Below, in pieces: positions 5,661-37,993 of a DNA stretch of 64,000 bases. Within the stretch, counting starts at the first letter, position 1; each line of letters opens with the position of its first letter. Origin of the DNA: a phage; NCBI GenBank assembly GCA_018093385.1, contig GCA_018093385.1_4808.1. The stretch is one strand, 5' to 3'. Below the pieces are notes generated by a model. That model was not told where the DNA came from, ran no database searches, and saw only the letters and a program-made list of their open reading frames with translations. Both the position numbers and the translations under genes were made by a program.

Positions 5661-7994
5661 TTATTTCGCTGATTTCAGCGCGGCTATCTCTGCCTCTAGT
5701 GATTCAACCTTTTTCATCAACTCCTGCACCACGTGCATCGTGTCAAGAAGCATTGGAGTTGTGTCTAGTTGTTTTTGTTCAACCTCTACGCCTTCGCTCG
5801 GATAGAATTTCACCGTTTTTACATACAACGGGTCAATAATCTCTGCTTGTTGAGCGATGACACCCCTTCTTACCCTTTCCTTTTCATCATTGTTGTAAAT
5901 AAATGTCACATATTCCAACGATGAAAGGTTGCTCCATGCTTTTTCAACCGTTCCTGGCTGTATGTCATGCTTCAAATTCTCATCAGAGATGGCATTCTTT
6001 TGAAGAGTATAAAAGCTATCTGATCCAAGAATTGATACAGAGAAAAACACATCATGAGAGTTAGGCTGTATGTTCATCCTTGTCTGGTACTGCGCATTAT
6101 CATCTCCAACGACGAGCCAAGTGCCCTGCGCAAAACTTCCGTTATTGTTGTGGATCAAACCGTGGTGAAGCGTTGTGGCATAACCTGTATCAACCTGTTG
6201 ACCGCCGCTAAAAAGACTGTTGAAAGCATAGTTTTGACCCATTGACTGTCTCACCGTTGCATAGGTGCCGATTCTTGTTCCAGTCTCACTCCAAGACATT
6301 AAGCTTCCATATCTCGCGGCGAATCTGTCGCTGCTAAGAGTTCCTGCATCATCAAATGCAAGGTCTTTAGTCACCCCTTTTGTTTTATTGTACACAGACA
6401 GTATTGCATAATAAAATCCATCCATGTATGCATCGCATCGCAATCCGGCATCAGCTTCAACAACAGTACCAATTTTGTATTGTGCCCTTACTTGCCCTGA
6501 AGACCCCTTAACCCCAGAGCCTGGTCGAACAGAATCCGCATTGATAACTGACCATTGCGTATTCGCGGCAACAAAGCCACCAGATGCACGAATCACCCAA
6601 ACACCGACAAAGTTGCGCGGCACGATTTCAGCCGCTGATCTTCCGTATACAGGGCTTGATCGAGAAGCGTCAAAGTTTGTTTGTATGAATCTTGAACCAG
6701 AACCTGCTGCTGCTGGAGAGTCCCCAGAAGTGATCGACTGAAAAGCGCCATTAGTCGCCACCTGACTTGGCGCAGAAGCCAACGTGACCATTGTGCGCGG
6801 CGCGGAGTAAGTTATATTTGGTGCACCTGACTCAGAAACGACTCCATTTGATGATGGATTGCCTCCATCACCTCGACCGAACAGGGCCTGAATAGAACCC
6901 GTCTGCACGCCGTTTCGGTCCGGCACACGAAATGTTGTCGTTCCGTTACCTAAAGAGTATTTACCGCGTTTCGCTGGGTCCGCTAACCAATCTGCATCTG
7001 CAATAGGTGAAAGCATTTGCGCATACGCCCAAAGTTCAGGCCAGTCAGCGCGGTTTAACAACTGCCCATCAGCAACGACTTCATACGGTTGAATATAAGC
7101 ACGGCTGTCGCGTAAGTGGAAGTCACCGACGCCATAGTTCATAACGCCGTTCATACTTGGTCCAACGGTGCCTGTGTTTACTAAGTTCTCAACCCAACGC
7201 TTGGTCGCGGCATCATGATCGTTTACTGGGTCACCAGCAAGCGGTGTTGCACCTTGTGGACGAATATTCAACCATGCTTGCGCATTGTCGGCTGACCCTG
7301 TGCCGCCCATAGAAGTCGGAACGATGTTTTGATCAGCGACTGTGCCAAATCCAAAAGCGGACTTCATACCCTGAATGGTAGTTTGGCCTGTGCCGCCGTT
7401 GGCGACTGGGATTATGCTTGACTCGGAATAAATCATGACCCAAGGAGACCACGTGCTATTTTGAGCGTTGAATCTTCTTTGGTAAGTATTGTTAATGGAA
7501 TATGATGTGTATTTTTGAATGCAACTTTCGGTCGATACTCCTGTTTGCAACACCTCTAAGACTCCTGCTTGTTCAACAGGATAGTTCAATCCAAAAGAGG
7601 CGGCGCCATCAGAGTTCTGATAATATTGCCCAAACCAGCTGCCGGTAAGAGCATTAAGATTCATGCCGGAAGGAACAGTGCCAAAATTTCGCAAGGTATT
7701 GGTCAAAGTCGCAGCAGTTGTTCGAATGGAAAGCATGTCACCAGCCGCCCATGCACGCGCTGCAGTTCCTTCCTGCGCACGCTGCACGGTTAGCACGTTT
7801 CCAACTACGGCTGTTACTGTGACGATTTCAAATTGGAGGCCTGTTGCAGCGTCGACGATTGTCGCCACTACACGCTCGTTCGCGGCCAAGGTCGGAAAGC
7901 CCGACCCTGAGCGGATTGTGATTGTGGTGTCTGAAGTCGTCGTTGGCTGGGCAAGCGCGACCTCAAAGTTGTTTTTGAATATTAGCCTTGGCAT
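5661..7994 (-). CDS. Tail fibre/tailspike protein with C-terminal intramolecular chaperone (peptidase S74-like) domain
   Basis: C-terminus LKHDIQP...GVIAQQAEIIDP...coiled-coil tail matches the self-cleaving chaperone module; Gly/Ser/Thr-rich body. Confidence 0.7.
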   Translation of the reverse strand: MPRLIFKNNFEVALAQPTTTSDTTITIRSGSGFPTLAANERVVATIVDAATGLQFEIVTVTAVVGNVLTVQRAQEGTAARAWAAGDMLSIRTTAATLTNTLRNFGTVPSGMNLNALTGSWFGQYYQNSDGAASFGLNYPVEQAGVLEVLQTGVSTESCIQKYTSYSINNTYQRRFNAQNSTWSPWVMIYSESSIIPVANGGTGQTTIQGMKSAFGFGTVADQNIVPTSMGGTGSADNAQAWLNIRPQGATPLAGDPVNDHDAATKRWVENLVNTGTVGPSMNGVMNYGVGDFHLRDSRAYIQPYEVVADGQLLNRADWPELWAYAQMLSPIADADWLADPAKRGKYSLGNGTTTFRVPDRNGVQTGSIQALFGRGDGGNPSSNGVVSESGAPNITYSAPRTMVTLASAPSQVATNGAFQSITSGDSPAAAGSGSRFIQTNFDASRSSPVYGRSAAEIVPRNFVGVWVIRASGGFVAANTQWSVINADSVRPGSGVKGSSGQVRAQYKIGTVVEADAGLRCDAYMDGFYYAILSVYNKTKGVTKDLAFDDAGTLSSDRFAARYGSLMSWSETGTRIGTYATVRQSMGQNYAFNSLFSGGQQVDTGYATTLHHGLIHNNNGSFAQGTWLVVGDDNAQYQTRMNIQPNSHDVFFSVSILGSDSFYTLQKNAISDENLKHDIQPGTVEKAWSNLSSLEYVTFIYNNDEKERVRRGVIAQQAEIIDPLYVKTVKFYPSEGVEVEQKQLDTTPMLLDTMHVVQELMKKVESLEAEIAALKSAK

Positions 7995-14921: not shown

Positions 14922-15842
14922 ATGACGATACCAATCAACACATTCCCTCTATCTGGACAAACTCCAGTCTTGCCTGCGGTGTATGCTAATGGCTTGGCAA
15001 TTGTCTCAGAATTCACTTCTGATAAAAACTTGATTGTTCCACTGAGCCCGCCGCTTGCATCAGGGTATAACTCAGTAGGCCAATTCTTTATGATTGGCAA
15101 TGATGGCGATTCGACCAGCAAGCCTAATCTGACATTGTCTGTACCTAAGATGGACATCACAGACGTTCAAACTGGCTTGACTGCATCAACAATCACCATT
15201 GCTTTTGGAGAAGCGGTGATTATAGGAATGGAGTCTGGAGGGTCCAAGAATGCTGTCGCCGTTAAGGTAGTCAAATCCAGCGACAACCAATACACGTTAC
15301 CAGCTGCGACGGCTTCCGTTCTCGGCGGCGTCAAAATAGGAAGCGGAATAAGCGTCGCAGGTGACGGTACAATTAGCGTCACTCAATACTCATTGCCGAT
15401 TGCGTCAGCATCTACTTTAGGCGGCGTAAAGGTCGGTACAACTCTATCAATTGATGGTTCCGGTGTGCTTAACGCAGCGGAAAGCACCGTCCAGAATGCC
15501 ACGAACAGTGTTAGCAATCCTCCAACCACTTTGGTTAATCTGGCAACCTTAAACCTTCCTGCAGGAAAGTGGCTTGTGACGGCAAGTCAGTTGACTGTCG
15601 CGACAGCAGGAATTCAAGCGAACACCGGAATTACAGCCAAATTGTCAACAAGCGATTCAGATATTACGGATGATGCATTTACGATGTCAGCTGGCATTCG
15701 GGCTGCAGGTCGTTTCGGCGGCAATATTCCAACAAAGATAATTACTCTTGCCGCGCCTGGCGATGTGTATCTAAACTATCAATGCACAGATGCGTTGACA
15801 TCTACCGTTTACGGACAGATCACCGCAATCAAGCTGAACTAA
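14922..15842 (+). CDS. Structural protein with internal tandem Gly-rich repeat
   Basis: GAGGT SD; repeated LGGVK(I/V)G...(D)G(T/S)(I/G)...segments. Confidence 0.5.
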   Translation: MTIPINTFPLSGQTPVLPAVYANGLAIVSEFTSDKNLIVPLSPPLASGYNSVGQFFMIGNDGDSTSKPNLTLSVPKMDITDVQTGLTASTITIAFGEAVIIGMESGGSKNAVAVKVVKSSDNQYTLPAATASVLGGVKIGSGISVAGDGTISVTQYSLPIASASTLGGVKVGTTLSIDGSGVLNAAESTVQNATNSVSNPPTTLVNLATLNLPAGKWLVTASQLTVATAGIQANTGITAKLSTSDSDITDDAFTMSAGIRAAGRFGGNIPTKIITLAAPGDVYLNYQCTDALTSTVYGQITAIKLN

Positions 15843-32771: not shown

Positions 32772-35510
32772 ATGCAAAAGTTTGACACAAACCTGTTGCA
32801 AAACCTTAAGTGGATGCAGAACAATGCACCAAACATTACGTCTTTGGTGCAAAAGAAAAGTGACTGGTATGAAAGATACCAAGATCAGTTTTGGGCTGAC
32901 TGGTACAATAACATTTTTAACATTGACACTTGTGATGCAATGGGCATTTATATTTGGTGCGACATTCTTTGCATACCAAGAGACTTTGTGGACTTAAGCA
33001 ATTATGAGCACAACTGGGCGTTTGGACCGACGCGCGACAACTTTGAAGGTGCGGACAACATCGGCGGCAACTTCTTTGGTGCTGGCGGGAAGGTTGTCAA
33101 GAATATCGAAGAAGCGCGCATACTTCTTAAGCTTCGTTATCTGACGCTTACAAGTGATGGCCGCATCGAAAGTATCAACCGCATGCTTAAGTGGATTTTC
33201 AACCGTGGAGAGGCTTGGGATTACTCTTCATCACGCTACGCATATGTGACCGACAATACTCAAGGCGCGGTGTCTTCGTCTGAATCAACCAATGGCTCAT
33301 TCCTTCTGTACGACTGGCAAGGGTCAACTGAGATTCAGCATGATTATAAGCAGATACTTTTAAGCCATGGCAACAACGCCGGACTGACCATCAGCGGAGT
33401 GTCAGGCACCGTGTCACGGATGGCGCACCCAGATTGGTACTCATGGGGAAATGGTTCCGGCACAGGGCTTGTCGGCGGCGACACCAGACAGTATGGTGGG
33501 CCTGATTACTATGGGCAGTTGTGTGGTGATTACCCAGGCGAGGCCATAGAGAATTTTGCCAACGCAGTAAGGGTCATCAAGACGGCTTCAAGCGGTGAGC
33601 CTGTGTATTCTTTGGCCAATAATCCAAGTGCCAAATCAATTTCGCTTCCTTCGCAGGCTGGCGTCAACGTTTGCTATAGCTTCTACATAAAGGTGCTTTC
33701 TGAAAACGTCGCTTCTGTTTCTGTTACAGAGAATAGTGATGCATCGAGTAATGGAAAGCTGTTTGACCCCGTCACTGGCCAGTTCAACTTGGACCCGTCA
33801 TTGAGCTATTTCATCAAAGGCAAATTCGATGGAGTAAGAAGGGAATCAAACCGTGGTGGCATAAAAGCAATTGGCGGCGATTGGTATCGAATCTGGATTG
33901 TAGAGCAGACGGCAACCGCTGCTTCTGGAGTAAGTACCAGCTTTTCAATAGAGTTGAAGGCGACTGCCGCTGGATCAACTCAAACTCGTGAATTGCCTGA
34001 AGGGTCTGATGCTCTTTTGTTTGGATACTCGATTTGCGTCTGCGACCCTGTTCAGAATCCAAATGGACCTGAGCCTTATTTTTATGGAACGCAAAACCCT
34101 CCTTCTGACGGAACAGCAATCCTGTCTGTAACGGCGGGAACACTCAATAACATCTCCTGTGCAAACGGACCGCTGACGACAAGAAACGGTGTAGTTGGCG
34201 AGTCATTCATGCAACCTGGCTCATCACTTGCATACTCTGGCTCAATCGGCGGCCACCCGTACCCAGGGAACGCCACGCTGATTGCAGAGACTGATGGAAT
34301 CAGACGCTCATGGAACGTTAGCAGGCTGGATGGAGTACCGCCGCCGCCGACCGCCGACTATTACATGGAATACGTCATCGGACCTTATTTCGCCAACAAC
34401 CTGTCTGACAACTTTAAGACGCTAGTTGGTGACAGGAATGAAGGATTCTTGCCAGCAAATGCCGGAATACGCTGGCAGCTTTACCAAGAAGTCGCAGACT
34501 TATCTGATATTGATTTGACTGTCAGCGACATAACAGACACGCGCGTAGGATTTGAAACGGAAGGTGTTGCGTGGATTAACACTGACGGTATCATCAGAGT
34601 TGGCGGCATCAACGAGTGGCCGCTGAACAACTTCAACGGTGTGATACGCCAGCTTGAATCTTTGAAAGGTGTAAACCAGGTCGTCGACGGCGCGCTTGTC
34701 AACGACTATTCAATCTCAAAAGCATCAAGAGATGACTTTGGTCGTGAAATACCACGCGCGGCAATCACTAACTATTGGCGCTACACACAGCCAAATGACG
34801 GTACATCTTTTGGCAATATCATTGAGGATGGCGCAAACACTGTCACAGCGACGCCAATCAGCGGTGTGCCCAACCAGTTCCCATCATTCAAGCTTTCCGC
34901 TACAATAGGGACTGTGCCAACGTCCGGTTATGCACGCGCTGTACTTGCTACTAAATACACTGGCACCCTGACTGGCCCTTTGTCATTTATCGCAATAGTC
35001 AAAAACAACACGGTTAACGGTCAAAAACTTTTTGTAACTGTACCGGATGGGATGGGTGGCTATATCCCTAAATTCTACAACATAGGCGCAGGTGATTTGC
35101 AACGTATCGAAATTGACCTTGCCGCTGAGATTGTTGAAGGCGCTACCTGGGATGGATCAACAGGCGGCATCAGCATCGGTTTGATATCAGGGAAAGACTT
35201 GCCGACCGAAGTTGGTACGACTCTTGAACTTGATATTTTAAGCTTGATGCTTGTGTCTGGTAGTACGATGAATGCGCTTGCAATTTCAACAAGCGAAGAT
35301 TTCGCAAAGAAAACTGCGACTTCTATATACATCAAAAACCCAGGATCACTTGCCACTGGAGTTCAATTGATTGCTTCTAATGGTGATGTTGTAGCAACAG
35401 TAAACTTTCCGAGAAGTGCTGCTGGCGGTTATGTTTCAAGCATGAACATAACTGACTTAACTGGTGATTGGGCATCGACCCTTTTATCAAAAATTAAATA
35501 CATCGTGTAG
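32772..35510 (+). CDS. Large tail/baseplate protein, putative host-specificity component
   Basis: 912 aa, Gly/Ser/Thr/Asn-rich. Confidence 0.5.
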   Translation: MQKFDTNLLQNLKWMQNNAPNITSLVQKKSDWYERYQDQFWADWYNNIFNIDTCDAMGIYIWCDILCIPRDFVDLSNYEHNWAFGPTRDNFEGADNIGGNFFGAGGKVVKNIEEARILLKLRYLTLTSDGRIESINRMLKWIFNRGEAWDYSSSRYAYVTDNTQGAVSSSESTNGSFLLYDWQGSTEIQHDYKQILLSHGNNAGLTISGVSGTVSRMAHPDWYSWGNGSGTGLVGGDTRQYGGPDYYGQLCGDYPGEAIENFANAVRVIKTASSGEPVYSLANNPSAKSISLPSQAGVNVCYSFYIKVLSENVASVSVTENSDASSNGKLFDPVTGQFNLDPSLSYFIKGKFDGVRRESNRGGIKAIGGDWYRIWIVEQTATAASGVSTSFSIELKATAAGSTQTRELPEGSDALLFGYSICVCDPVQNPNGPEPYFYGTQNPPSDGTAILSVTAGTLNNISCANGPLTTRNGVVGESFMQPGSSLAYSGSIGGHPYPGNATLIAETDGIRRSWNVSRLDGVPPPPTADYYMEYVIGPYFANNLSDNFKTLVGDRNEGFLPANAGIRWQLYQEVADLSDIDLTVSDITDTRVGFETEGVAWINTDGIIRVGGINEWPLNNFNGVIRQLESLKGVNQVVDGALVNDYSISKASRDDFGREIPRAAITNYWRYTQPNDGTSFGNIIEDGANTVTATPISGVPNQFPSFKLSATIGTVPTSGYARAVLATKYTGTLTGPLSFIAIVKNNTVNGQKLFVTVPDGMGGYIPKFYNIGAGDLQRIEIDLAAEIVEGATWDGSTGGISIGLISGKDLPTEVGTTLELDILSLMLVSGSTMNALAISTSEDFAKKTATSIYIKNPGSLATGVQLIASNGDVVATVNFPRSAAGGYVSSMNITDLTGDWASTLLSKIKYIV

Positions 35511-35520
35511 AGGAACGGCA

Positions 35521-37308
35521 ATGCCAACACTTATTAACAGACCTTTCGCGCAAAGCGGTGATGTATCCGTGGTGCCGGATGCAAGTCCAAGCGGTTATGT
35601 GAACTTCCAGCGCGGCTACACCCCTGACTATGCACTTGCGCTAGAAGCCGGAAACGTAGCCGCGAAAGCAGTTGAACGTGAGTCGATGAACTGGTTGCTG
35701 AATCTGATCACCGACAACCTTATGTTCATACAGGACCACGGCGCTCAACAGTATTTCTCGTCTGACTTGAAGCCAGATGGATACCCGAAAAATGCCATCG
35801 TTGTCAGCAACTCTGGCACCCCTTCAGCGCCTGAATGGCGCATTTTCCAGAGTGTGGTAGACGGCAACACCAGCGCAGTCCCAGCTAACGGCGAAACGGA
35901 ATCTTGGCAGGAATTGACGCTGCCTAGCGAAGCGAGAAAATATATTCCTATGCCTGCTGGCGGCGATGCGCAAAACCCGTATTTTGTTCGCGGACTGATT
36001 TCAAACTTTGTGGACTTTGATAATATCACGACTTCCACAACTATTGTCATTCAATCTGATGCCGTTGCCGCTCTCTGCTCTAACATCCCGAATGCGGTTG
36101 GTGCGACGAAGGTTGCAGGACGTCTCCAGGTTTGCGCTTGGCAGGTTGATGCGCAGACTTTCGCCCTGCAACAATACACGTCAATGAACGGATATGTTTT
36201 CACCCGCTCTTATACGTCTGGTGCTTGGAGTGCTTGGATTCAAAATGCAACTGTTCAAGACGTGCAAATCGGCACGCCGAATCTTGCATCAGGTAAAGGC
36301 GCACAAGATATAATCCTTACCGTTCCGGCAGGTTATGCATGGCCGCCGTCAGCAGGTAGTCGCCTGACAATTGTCAATGATGTAACGACTACCGGACCTG
36401 TTACCGTGACCATTGGTGCAAACAAAGTTGCAGTCCTTGGATTCGACGGCGGCGAGCTGCCAGCAGGGTCCATCGTCGGCCTTCTTCCTTTTACTATTAT
36501 TTATGACGGCACCGTTTGGCGTCTTCTTCAAGCATTCGGCGCGGCGCAAATCGGTGTCGATGCTAGTGAGCCGCAACAGTTTGTTACAAAGCGCCAACTC
36601 GATGCTTTGGCCGCGAAGTTGATCACTATGGGTGATGTGTTCGAAGTCGGTGAGACTCGATTCTTGACTAATGGCACCAACCCAAATACTAAACTGGGCG
36701 CTTACGGTCAGGTATGGACCAGATTGCCTGATAACATGGTCATCAGGACGTCTGGCACGGCAAGAAACGGTCTTGACACTGGAGGTGCAGACTCTGTTAC
36801 TCTTACTGCCGCCATGCTTCCTCTGCACAATCACAGCGTTAACATAACTACGCGACAAAGTGGTCCATGGTCCAATACCACTGGAGACGCAGGCAACCAT
36901 AACCACACAGGCGATACCAGTCAAAACGGTGCTCACGTGCACGGAATGGATTCGGCAGGCAACCACCACCATGACAGTAGCTGGGGTGAGGCGAATACGA
37001 ATGATGCGCGGTATGGCGTGTATGATGGGACGCACAACAACTTCGGAAGTCGAAAGGGCGGCGACTGGGACAACTATAAATACAACACCTCAACTAACGG
37101 CAACCACGTTCACAATATTCAATCTTCTGGGTCACACACTCATGGGTTGAATATAAATTACGCTGGCAATCACAGCCATGGATATACCCTCCCCGCTCAC
37201 ACTCACGATGTGGTCGGTAACACTGGCGATGCAGGGCAGTCCGTCCCAACGGCTGTTTCAACTCTGCCGCGATATGTCGTCTTGAACGGCTGGTACAGAA
37301 GCGCATAA
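35521..37308 (+). CDS. Tail fibre protein with C-terminal His-x-His repeat region
   Basis: HNHSV, NHNHTGD, HVHG, NHHHD, HVHN, HTHG, NHSHG, HTHD repeats; start after GAGGAA SD. Confidence 0.65.
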   Translation: MPTLINRPFAQSGDVSVVPDASPSGYVNFQRGYTPDYALALEAGNVAAKAVERESMNWLLNLITDNLMFIQDHGAQQYFSSDLKPDGYPKNAIVVSNSGTPSAPEWRIFQSVVDGNTSAVPANGETESWQELTLPSEARKYIPMPAGGDAQNPYFVRGLISNFVDFDNITTSTTIVIQSDAVAALCSNIPNAVGATKVAGRLQVCAWQVDAQTFALQQYTSMNGYVFTRSYTSGAWSAWIQNATVQDVQIGTPNLASGKGAQDIILTVPAGYAWPPSAGSRLTIVNDVTTTGPVTVTIGANKVAVLGFDGGELPAGSIVGLLPFTIIYDGTVWRLLQAFGAAQIGVDASEPQQFVTKRQLDALAAKLITMGDVFEVGETRFLTNGTNPNTKLGAYGQVWTRLPDNMVIRTSGTARNGLDTGGADSVTLTAAMLPLHNHSVNITTRQSGPWSNTTGDAGNHNHTGDTSQNGAHVHGMDSAGNHHHDSSWGEANTNDARYGVYDGTHNNFGSRKGGDWDNYKYNTSTNGNHVHNIQSSGSHTHGLNINYAGNHSHGYTLPAHTHDVVGNTGDAGQSVPTAVSTLPRYVVLNGWYRSA

Positions 37309-37316
37309 GGTGATTT

Positions 37317-37961
37317 ATGATTAATGCAAACGTAATATCTAAAGGGACCGGATGCAGCATGGATGTTGCTGAAAAATGGGTCGACCCCTTCAAGCAGGCT
37401 TGTGAGCACTACGGAATCAAAAGCAAGAATGCCATCGCGGCGCTGCTTGCAAACGTAGGAGTGGAAACAGGCAGTCTGAAGACCTTTGTGGAAAACCTGA
37501 ATTATTCCGCTCAAGGTCTTGCTAATACGTGGCCTAGCCGTTACAGCGCCAGCGGTCGTTTCGGTGGCGCACCAAACTCCTTGGCATTGTCGATTGCCCG
37601 TAAACCAATGGAAATCGCCAATAATACATATGCAAACCGAATGGGAAATGGTTCGGTAGCATCTGGCGACGGTTGGAAGTACCGTGGCCGTGGTGCCATT
37701 CAGCTGACTGGAAAGGACAACTATGCAGAGTATTCAAAGCAATCAGGGTATGACGCATTGAATAACCCTGACATTTTGACTGAGCCGAAATACATTGCTG
37801 ACAGCGCGGCATGGTTCTTCAAGAACAGCGGTTGCATTCCACTTGCCGATGCGGGCGCATTTGATTCGACCGTGAAGCGGATTAACGGGGCCGCGCCAAA
37901 TACGGCTAACCATGGGGATTTGCGACGGAAGCGTTACAAGGGAGCACTAGCAGTTATGTAA
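37317..37961 (+). CDS. Endolysin, glycoside hydrolase family 19-like
   Basis: GWKYRGRGAIQLTGKDNY resembles the GH19 core; AAGGTGA SD. Confidence 0.65.
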   Translation: MINANVISKGTGCSMDVAEKWVDPFKQACEHYGIKSKNAIAALLANVGVETGSLKTFVENLNYSAQGLANTWPSRYSASGRFGGAPNSLALSIARKPMEIANNTYANRMGNGSVASGDGWKYRGRGAIQLTGKDNYAEYSKQSGYDALNNPDILTEPKYIADSAAWFFKNSGCIPLADAGAFDSTVKRINGAAPNTANHGDLRRKRYKGALAVM

Positions 37962-37962
37962 G

Positions 37963-37993
37963 AAAAAGGCCCATATGGGCCTTTGTTTATTTT
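37963..37993. terminator. Bidirectional rho-independent terminator (AAAGGCCC-ATAT-GGGCCTTT, T-run after)
   Basis: Perfect palindrome between convergent genes. Confidence 0.75.

Follow-up and report, generated by a model that had tools for sequence, protein, structure and literature searches.

A conserved Wifcevirus tail fibre combining, by homology, a Pbunavirus-type proximal part with a T4 gp37-type and probably metal-stapled tip

Positions 35,521 to 37,308 of a phage contig (GCA_018093385.1_4808.1, assembly GCA_018093385.1; the whole stretch of 64,000 nucleotides is referred to here as the window) encode a protein whose C-terminal end is crowded with His-x-His (HxH) motifs. The question raised by this locus is what such a fibre contributes to a phage which also carries another fibre, encoded at 5661-7994. 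The first-pass annotation had proposed a T4 gp37-type tip and two different receptor-binding proteins. The present analysis points with good confidence to a genus-conserved, baseplate-anchored tail fibre of Wifcevirus, a chimera of two known modules with a probable role in secondary-receptor binding.

The gene is placed between a baseplate wedge gene and an endolysin gene:
32772..35510, plus strand: baseplate wedge protein (912 aa; Pfam DUF2612), directly upstream of the fibre
35510..35514, plus strand: Shine-Dalgarno sequence GAGGA, 6 nt 5′ of the ATG, read from the sequence
35521..37308, plus strand: CDS (ORF, 595 aa plus stop) of the conserved Wifcevirus tail fibre, very probably of the baseplate
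37317-37961: endolysin gene, upstream of the terminator
37965..37984, plus strand: putative hairpin terminator closing the late operon (8-bp stem with 5 GC pairs, then a T-run; consensus match only)

The frame extends from the ATG at 35521 to the last base of its stop codon at 37308, and the GAGGA shares one base with the stop codon of the wedge gene, namely its last base. The same ATG is the start in all annotated orthologues. A longer form beginning at the GTG at 35464 was rejected, as its first 47 nt fall within the wedge gene and no orthologue supports it, while a good Shine-Dalgarno sequence precedes the ATG. An antisense ORF at 36349-37035 (228 aa) was not accepted as a gene either, since no annotation of it exists in the relatives that were examined in this respect.

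The gene has full-length matches in 29 phage records (100% coverage, 87-99.3% identity), all 29 of which belong to Escherichia or Shigella phages, named Wifcevirus isolates among them. The identity to Bas100_0031, annotated as 'tail protein', is 99.3% at the nucleotide level, and the remaining 0.7% of differences cause no amino-acid change. The order wedge, fibre, endolysin is the same in the orthologues and in the window, whose source is a Wifcevirus myovirus of E. coli. At the protein level, PHROG 5717 'tail protein' is matched with E=6e-174, and a search of the full-length protein against Pfam gives zero matches. The orthologue in the literature, Bas99_0031/Bas100_0031 (Gp32 of ManiWeber/Bas99, PMC11990801), is 91-99% identical in nucleotides, equal in length and position, and has eight HxH motifs as well, so that the Wifcevirus Gp32 shows no difference in kind from the window fibre. 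Gp32 can be equated with the latter because the window fibre is the sole HxH-rich frame in the window, where none of the other stop-to-stop frames of at least 100 codons contains three or more HxH. The number Gp32 used in PMC11990801 and the GenBank tag 0031 do not agree with each other. By identity, length and synteny, the gene belongs to the conserved fibre of Wifcevirus.

The attachment of the fibre to the particle is suggested by its N-terminal part, which is divided as follows:
35521..35910, plus strand (aa 1-130): baseplate-binding domain ('bead I'), from the Pa193 gp47 alignment, boundary approximate
35911..36636, plus strand (aa 131-372): proximal shaft (beads II and III), from the same alignment

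Residues 2-372 align with the Pbunavirus fibre Pa193 gp47 (PDB 9b45, E=8.5e-32), and the alignment stops at aa 372. The fibre-wedge interface of Pa193 is defined in PMC11456595, and both sides of it can be recognized here. Leu39 and Leu41 of the fibre correspond to Ile41 and Leu43 of the Pa193 docking loop, which means that the hydrophobic docking residues are retained. On the side of the wedge, residues 4-185 match Pa193 gp46 and E217 gp45 (E~1e-41), and W82, F84, F91 and F101 stand in place of the attachment-loop residues W84, F86, F93 and F112, with all four aromatic contacts kept. The N-terminal loops of the fibre (Leu39/Leu41) would therefore be expected to dock onto the attachment loop of the wedge (W82/F84/F91/F101). 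The N-terminal region with the docking loop and the gene position directly after the triplex wedge are both those of a Pbunavirus-type fibre, and by homology aa 1-372 can be assigned as its proximal part. The likeness to the fibres of Pa193 (gp47) and E217 thus covers 372 residues, the docking residues and the gene following a homologous wedge gene. The distal parts differ: Pa193 gp47 is a protein of 962 aa with an unrelated distal region of ~600 residues, whereas the window fibre ends in a 223-aa gp37-type tip which has no significant match in Pa193 gp47. Pbunaviruses are also described with one fibre type and Wifcevirus with two.

The distal part contains the HxH motifs. The first-pass annotation counted at least eight within the C-terminal ~150 residues, and the count is exactly eight within the last 160: HNH436, HNH460, HVH472, HHH482, HVH529, HTH539, HSH551 and HTH560. 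The motifs span aa 436-562 (nt 36826-37206) and form two blocks of four with 44 residues between them; six of the eight have the G-x-H-x-H form known from T4 gp37. As 18 of the 19 histidines of the protein are found in its last 195 residues (aa 401-595), it can be asked if the motifs arose by chance in a tail that is rich in His, Gly and Asn, of low complexity or disordered, and without a defined fold. Across 20,000 composition-preserving shuffles, the whole protein yielded 0.58 HxH on average, and shuffling of the His-rich C-terminus alone raised the mean to 1.55 with a maximum of 7. Eight were never attained in either set (p < 5e-5). All eight motifs, with their 16 histidines, are kept without change across the seven Wifcevirus orthologues in the comparison despite a dS of ~0.6-0.7, and the regular spacing of the G-x-H-x-H motifs resembles that of T4.

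The homology of this region to a crystal structure also speaks against a chance origin. A profile combining the C-terminal module with seven relatives finds the receptor-binding tip of T4 gp37 (PDB 2xgf) at E=6e-14 and with the HxH motifs aligned, and hhalign gives the pair a probability of 98%. The same profile matches the fibre of cyanophage A-1(L) (8kec, E=5.7e-5) and the C-domain of T4 gp10 (2fkk, E=2.2e-4), the latter in two pieces flanking the needle. The module can be divided accordingly:
36637..36825, plus strand (aa 373-435): collar domain, N-terminal half (gp10/gp11-type fold)
36826..36972, plus strand (aa 436-484): descending needle strand with HxH 436, 460, 472 and 482 (motifs, profile match, hhalign)
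36973..37104, plus strand (aa 485-528): distal head and chain turn between the HxH blocks, as in the gp37 head; putative receptor-contact surface
37105..37206, plus strand (aa 529-562): ascending needle strand with HxH 529, 539, 551 and 560 (motifs, profile match, hhalign)
37207..37305, plus strand (aa 563-595): collar domain, C-terminal half, with the terminal GWYRSA family signature (T4 gp10 profile match)

For the second half of the collar, the match is to the C-terminal strand of T4 gp10 (2fkk 177-206), and W, R and A of GWYRSA are invariant in the aligned relatives. Pfam Gp10_C is carried by more than 2,500 relatives. The two HxH blocks around a head, the homology to a solved tip and the split collar of the gp10/gp11/gp12 fold together agree with the arrangement of collar, needle and head that PMC12609058 gives for gp37-type tips. 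By homology, residues 373-595 can be regarded as a receptor-binding tip of the T4 gp37 type, in which a gp10/gp11-type collar is interrupted by a long hairpin excursion, and the gp37 likeness proposed earlier is borne out. This relationship is visible through the profile only, as aa 371-595 used as a single sequence find nothing in the PDB. Against Pfam (E up to 10), the same residues give only a sub-threshold match to S_tail_recep_bd (PF14928; E=0.69, 10.7 bits, cut-off 23.8). Membership in the T4 gp12 short tail fibres was considered and rejected, with Pfam Collar (PF07484) not reported and PF14928 below the gathering threshold.

Structure prediction had been proposed in the first-pass annotation as a check, with a disordered HxH region counting against the reading. 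The AlphaFold2 monomer (122-sequence alignment, mean pLDDT 57.8) does return the needle, aa 436-562, as low-confidence coil without secondary structure (pLDDT 43-55), which is also the one point in favor of a disordered tail; the last ~15 residues reach pLDDT 72-87. In Foldseek, there is no significant match to the PDB. The monomer is not accepted as a valid test of the needle fold, however, since this needle would be an obligate trimer of interdigitated chains. For the Bas99 orthologue, a published trimer prediction shows an elongated tip (PMC11990801). By the shuffles, the profile homology and the invariance of the histidines, a chance or low-complexity origin is effectively already refuted, and its probability is practically negligible.

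The comparison with known tips defines what is shared. With T4 gp37 (residues ~811-1026), the tip has in common the order of collar, needle and head, the chain that doubles back and the two G-x-H-x-H blocks. T4 gp37 has seven HxH (3+4) instead of eight (4+4) and a head of ~34 residues instead of 44, without detectable sequence similarity between the heads. The window fibre is a single 595-aa protein on the wedge, whereas T4 gp37 is the distal part of a four-protein fibre. The long and short tail fibres of Felixounavirus (Bas63 gp27/gp26; Felix O1 p44) are likewise single-protein and baseplate-bound, with a gp37-type tip of 6-7 HxH (PMC12609058), and for the Mansfield orthologue the annotation notes a similarity to Felix O1 p44. 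Their N-terminal and shaft parts differ from those of the window fibre, and in Bas63 both fibres carry a gp37-type tip, as compared with one in the window phage. The closest relatives of the tip itself are short Gp10_C/HxH proteins of enterobacterial prophages, named 'tail fiber' or 'phage baseplate' (E=1e-21, BLASTP identity of 36% over 99% of the query, 41-45% in multiple alignments). An example is P0001 of Xenorhabdus bovienii, whose head sequence (WGEA...ARYGVYD...DWDNYKYNTST) is similar and which likewise ends in GWYRSA. Such prophage proteins have a length of 270-360 aa and unrelated N-termini, Phage_fiber_2 repeats are present in some of them, and the usual number of HxH is 5, 7 or 9. 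Among 122 family members, the number of HxH ranges from 3 to 17, and the length of the needle is modular across the family.

By analogy with T4, the tip is probably a metal-stapled needle. In the proposed homotrimer, the descending and ascending strands of each chain would form a six-stranded needle, and the six histidines of each HxH level, two from every chain, would surround one metal ion in octahedral geometry. A fibre may hold as many as eight ions in this way, acting as internal staples that give the thin needle its rigidity. The metal in the T4 gp37 tip is Fe2+, and in the T4 crystal structure the ions are hidden inside the trimer, along its axis. Such burial counts against the 'Ferrojan horse' reading, in which HxH-bound iron serves as bait by mimicking a siderophore complex for an iron-uptake receptor. 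The idea is discussed for the HxH fibres of marine phages (PMC11705849), while nothing at the present locus supports it and the phages require O-antigen, which makes it very improbable here.

The contribution of the tip to host recognition has to be considered together with the second fibre:
5661..7994, minus strand: variable, mosaic T5-like ('T-shaped') fibre, 777 aa, with a C-terminal S74 intramolecular chaperone (PMC11990801)

The first-pass annotation is corrected here with regard to the strand, which is minus. The protein matches Pfam Peptidase_S74 (E=6e-10) and the 'L-shaped tail fiber assembly' of PDB 8hqz (E=9e-141), and the presence of two different receptor-binding proteins, as claimed earlier, agrees with this match and with the statement in PMC11990801. 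Domains of gp12-like and T5-like character are found in it. The gene is covered to at least 80% in only 3 of the 60 matching records, by which it is mosaic, and the T-shaped fibre is probably O-antigen-specific. The reverse assignment, with the HxH fibre as the primary O-antigen binder, would account for the full dependence of Wifcevirus isolates on the O16 O-antigen, and Pbunavirus relatives with a homologous fibre target LPS (both PMC11990801). It is nevertheless improbable, since the same fibre (87-99% nt) is present in phages from O157:H7, K-12 O16 and Shigella flexneri hosts, among which a specific binder should differ, and the mosaic T-shaped fibre is better suited to variable glycan recognition.

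A conserved secondary target is likely for the HxH fibre because of its conservation, in contrast to the mosaic T-shaped one, and of the O-antigen dependence of the phages. After the T-shaped fibre engages the O-antigen, the HxH fibre would most likely bind a conserved structure, for example the LPS core or an outer-membrane protein, through its head of 44 residues where the chain turns (aa 485-528), and would then relay the signal to the wedge and the baseplate.

The pattern of variation bears directly on this role. Among the seven Wifcevirus orthologues, the distal head accounts for 14 of 42 variable columns, an eight-fold concentration (Fisher p=2e-7), and in three of five orthologue comparisons the dN of the head is ~ten-fold that of the rest of the gene. 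In bead I, four of the five comparisons show zero non-synonymous changes next to 35-40 synonymous ones, dN/dS is 0.02-0.05 in the proximal shaft, and the value for the whole fibre is 0.02-0.06. The fibre is therefore under strong purifying selection overall, with the variation focused in the head. The head occurs as two diverged alleles, one of the window/Bas100 type and the other of the Bas99/WFH type, and similarity patterns are incongruent between the proximal half of the gene and the distal one; the alleles have apparently been exchanged by recombination. The alleles do not track the O-antigen of the host, as O157 and K-12 O16 isolates are present in each allele group in this small sample. 

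A rival reading is a purely mechanical or structural role, in which the fibre has the structure described above but serves baseplate spacing or trigger transmission, the head makes no receptor contact and all specificity resides in the T-shaped fibre. A 'more mechanical' function is favored over receptor recognition by the BASEL authors (PMC11990801), and it would suit a genus-conserved fibre next to a mosaic one, the low overall dN/dS and the independence of the head alleles from the O-antigen type in the small set of isolation hosts. For a pure strut, on the other hand, head-focused variation, two diverged alleles and signs of recombination are unexpected, and the homologous head of T4 gp37 touches its receptor directly (PMC12609058). 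The mechanical role is accordingly considered rather unlikely, and receptor contact by the head is the preferred reading.

The assembly of the needle raises a further point. T4 gp37 requires helpers such as gp38 and gp57A. In Bas100, the closest genome, no gp38, gp57A, Tfa-type chaperone or tail-fibre-assembly genes are annotated, and the gene directly downstream of the fibre is the endolysin. A more specific proposal is put forward tentatively, at somewhat less than an even chance: the HxH fibre may be a true second receptor-binding protein with at least two recombining head alleles and a conserved receptor other than the O-antigen, and its needle may fold without a dedicated phage chaperone.

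The T4-gp37-like HxH tip and the two-fibre arrangement of Wifcevirus are already reported in the BASEL phage paper (PLoS Biol 2025, PMC11990801), and the current understanding is unchanged. The sole addition to that work is the concentration of variation in the head, with two alleles apparently recombining. The docking of the conserved fibre to the wedge resembles that of therapeutic Pbunavirus relatives. For host-range engineering, the T-shaped fibre would be the first target because it is mosaic and probably O-antigen-specific, followed by the small variable head of its conserved counterpart as a candidate for a second determinant. The main value of the finding is correct annotation: in GenBank relatives, the gene is mostly labelled 'hypothetical protein' or 'tail protein', and the label may be changed to that of a baseplate tail fibre whose gp37-type tip is probably metal-stapled.

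The phage in the window is an Escherichia coli myovirus of the Wifcevirus type, identical to no deposited record, and the window covers the greater part of its genome. Two of its genes encode tail fibres of different types: one with repeated His-x-His motifs (the HxH fibre, studied here) and one referred to as the T-shaped fibre.

Tail fibre genes of the window
35521–37308, plus strand, HxH fibre, ATG at 35521, stop ending at 37308, 595 aa
5661–7994, minus strand, T-shaped fibre, 777 aa

The HxH fibre gene is preceded by a Shine-Dalgarno sequence, GAGGA, 6 nt 5′ of the ATG, and shares 99.3% identity with Bas100_0031 ('tail protein') of Escherichia phage HansTraber_Bas100. Full-length matches (87–99% identity) are present in 29 phage records, all 29 from Escherichia or Shigella phages and including named Wifcevirus isolates. 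The gene order is wedge subunit, 912-aa 'hypothetical protein', HxH fibre and endolysin. A GTG start at 35464, proposed by the mechanical ORF list, was rejected, as it overlaps the preceding gene and is used by no annotated orthologue. The antisense frame at 36349–37035 (minus strand, 228 aa), which lies within the fibre gene and has no entry in the annotated relatives inspected, is probably spurious. At 37965–37984 (plus strand), in the gap that separates the endolysin gene from the convergent minus-strand genes, lies AAAGGCCCATATGGGCCTTT, a perfect palindromic hairpin with a T-run after it; it looks like a bidirectional terminator ending the late operon.

The first-pass annotation had noticed at least eight HxH motifs near the C-terminus of the fibre, and the count is exactly eight: the motifs lie at residues 436, 460, 472 and 482 and at 529, 539, 551 and 560, and 18 of the 19 histidines fall within the last 195 residues. 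In 20,000 shuffles of the whole protein the mean was 0.58 motifs, and in 20,000 shuffles of the His-rich C-terminus alone it was 1.55 with a maximum of 7, so that eight were reached in neither set. No other reading frame of at least 100 codons in the window contains three or more HxH motifs. Six of the eight follow the G-x-H-x-H pattern of T4 gp37, with a within-block spacing of 9–24 residues, and all eight are invariant among the seven Wifcevirus orthologues compared, despite synonymous divergence of up to about 0.6–0.7.

As a single sequence, residues 371–595 gave no hit in Pfam or the PDB sequences. A search of a large protein collection returned seven relatives, short proteins of prophages labelled 'tail fiber' or 'baseplate', all with Pfam Gp10_C (PF21939). 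The profile built from these eight sequences matched the receptor-binding tip of T4 gp37 in the PDB (2xgf, E=6e-14), its HxH motifs aligning with those of gp37, and hhalign gave 98% for the same pair, which upholds the gp37-type tip proposed earlier. Further matches were the cyanophage A-1(L) tail fibre (8kec, E=5.7e-5) and the C-terminal domain of T4 gp10 (2fkk, E=2.2e-4), the latter in two pieces, profile positions 1–64 before the needle and 171–199 after it. In gp37, the chain leaves a collar domain, forms a needle, turns at a small head and returns to the collar (PMC12609058), and the split match is what this architecture would predict. The profile matches and the gp37 architecture together lead to the following assignment.

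Predicted domains of the HxH fibre tip
Residues 373–435 and 563–595, collar
Residues 436–484, descending needle with four HxH motifs
Residues 485–528, head
Residues 529–562, ascending needle with four HxH motifs

The tip family is large (more than 2,500 hits), and its needle length is modular. In a set of 122 members, HxH counts run from 3 to 17 and peak at 5, 7 and 9; within this set the 4+4 arrangement occurs only in the HxH fibre. Tips of this kind are also found on Felixounavirus fibres (PMC12609058), and the annotation of the Mansfield orthologue notes a similarity to Felix O1 p44.

An AlphaFold2 monomer model, built with the 122-sequence alignment, reached good confidence in the collar segments alone (pLDDT 79–87 at the N-terminal end, 72–87 at the C-terminal end). 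The needle and head were modelled as coil (pLDDT 43–55). Formally, this is the predicted disorder that the first-pass annotation had named as evidence against its reading. It is not accepted as a refutation because the gp37 needle forms only from three interdigitated chains, with metal ions along the axis holding them together, an assembly beyond the reach of a monomer prediction. Foldseek found no significant match to the model in the PDB, the top entries being 8kec and T4 gp10. These modelling results point weakly in the expected direction.

The proximal part of the fibre has a different relationship. Residues 2–372 align to residues 4–368 of gp47, the tail fibre protein of Pseudomonas phage Pa193 (PDB 9b45, E=8.5e-32), and no further; the HxH fibre is a chimera that joins a proximal fibre of the Pbunavirus type to a tip of the T4 gp37 type. 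The best PHROG profile, PHROG 5717, has 1,150 positions, of which the 595-aa fibre aligns to 588–1150 only; therefore, some members are about twice as long, and may be fusions or longer fibres. In Pa193, the gp47 loops 38–52 (Ile41, Leu43) pack on wedge protein gp46 at its 'tail fibre attachment loop' (Trp84, Phe86, Phe93, Phe112) (PMC11456595). The equivalent fibre positions are Leu39 and Leu41. The 912-aa protein encoded directly upstream (32772–35510, plus strand) matches Pa193 gp46 and E217 gp45 over its first 185 residues (E~1e-41) and keeps all four aromatics (W82, F84, F91, F101). The first 130 fibre residues are identical in all seven phages compared, against 35–40 synonymous changes in four of five comparisons. 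As both sides of the interface are kept and this segment is unchanged, homology indicates Pbunavirus-like docking of the fibre on the baseplate wedge.

The wedge protein, labelled 'hypothetical protein' in every annotation, has 912 aa against 504 in Pa193 gp46, and the gp46 alignment covers only aa 4–185. The remaining ~700 residues have no match in Pfam or the PDB and are kept at 89–99% nucleotide identity in all 29 records holding the gene. They could be the attachment site of the T-shaped fibre or an extra host-contact module.

Variation in the HxH fibre is concentrated in the head, which holds 14 of 42 variable columns in 44 of 595 residues (Fisher p=2e-7) and in three of five comparisons shows dN of 0.145–0.157, against 0–0.07 elsewhere in the gene. 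Two head alleles are present, one in the window phage, Bas100, Mansfield and Ro157lw and the other in Bas99, WFH and ECML-117. Although slight, this variation argues against a purely mechanical fibre, the 'more mechanical role' suggested by the authors of the BASEL study of Wifcevirus phages (PMC11990801). The gene is also mosaic, with incongruent similarity patterns among orthologue loci L002–L006. Relative to the window, Bas99 is 95–100% identical over the first ~900 nt and 75–87% over the last ~900 (nt 901–1650), while Mansfield and Ro157lw show the opposite trend (81–95% over nt 1–1350, 87–93% at the tip, nt 1351–1650). This suggests that recombination swaps the distal tip between two Wifcevirus subgroups.

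The proposal of two different fibres was likewise confirmed. The T-shaped fibre ends in a Peptidase_S74 intramolecular chaperone (E=6e-10) and matches PDB 8hqz ('L-shaped tail fiber assembly', E=9e-141). At least 80% of its gene is covered in only 3 of 60 matching records, and its best identity, to Bas100, is 88%, compared with 99.3% for the HxH fibre, which is full length with its wedge partner in 29 of 29 records. The gene is mosaic, with segments shared with T5-like Escherichia and Salmonella phages; fp01 is one T5-like phage that parts of it match. A 306-aa protein of the head-gene module (14922–15842, plus strand), labelled 'tail fiber protein' in its Bas100 orthologue (Bas100_0006), matches Pfam Phage_head_fibr (PF11133, E=6.9e-7, over the curated cut-off) and has two copies of the motif A(T/S)ASxLGGVK(I/V)G; it probably serves as a fibre or decoration protein of the head rather than as a third tail fibre.

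The HxH fibre finding is real and was correctly interpreted, and it is already known: a 2025 publication on Wifcevirus reported the HxH tip, its analogy to gp37 and the presence of two fibres (PMC11990801). The minor additions are the domain map in window coordinates, the docking residues conserved on both fibre and wedge, the profile-level homology of the tip to 2xgf and 2fkk, the head-concentrated variation with signs of recombination, and the lack of an annotated fibre chaperone, as seen in the annotation of Bas100, the closest genome.

Homology shows the HxH fibre to be anchored on the wedge and to end in a collar, needle and head of the gp37 type. In the trimer, the six histidines of an HxH level would form one octahedral metal site, giving up to eight predicted metal ions that would rigidify the needle, with the head contacting the host. 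In the needle of T4 gp37 the metal is Fe2+. The same HxH fibre occurs in phages whose isolation hosts were O157:H7, K-12 O16 or Shigella. Wifcevirus isolates are fully dependent on the O16 O-antigen (PMC11990801), and this dependence, together with the range of hosts, points to a conserved secondary structure that the HxH fibre would bind once the T-shaped fibre has engaged the O-antigen.
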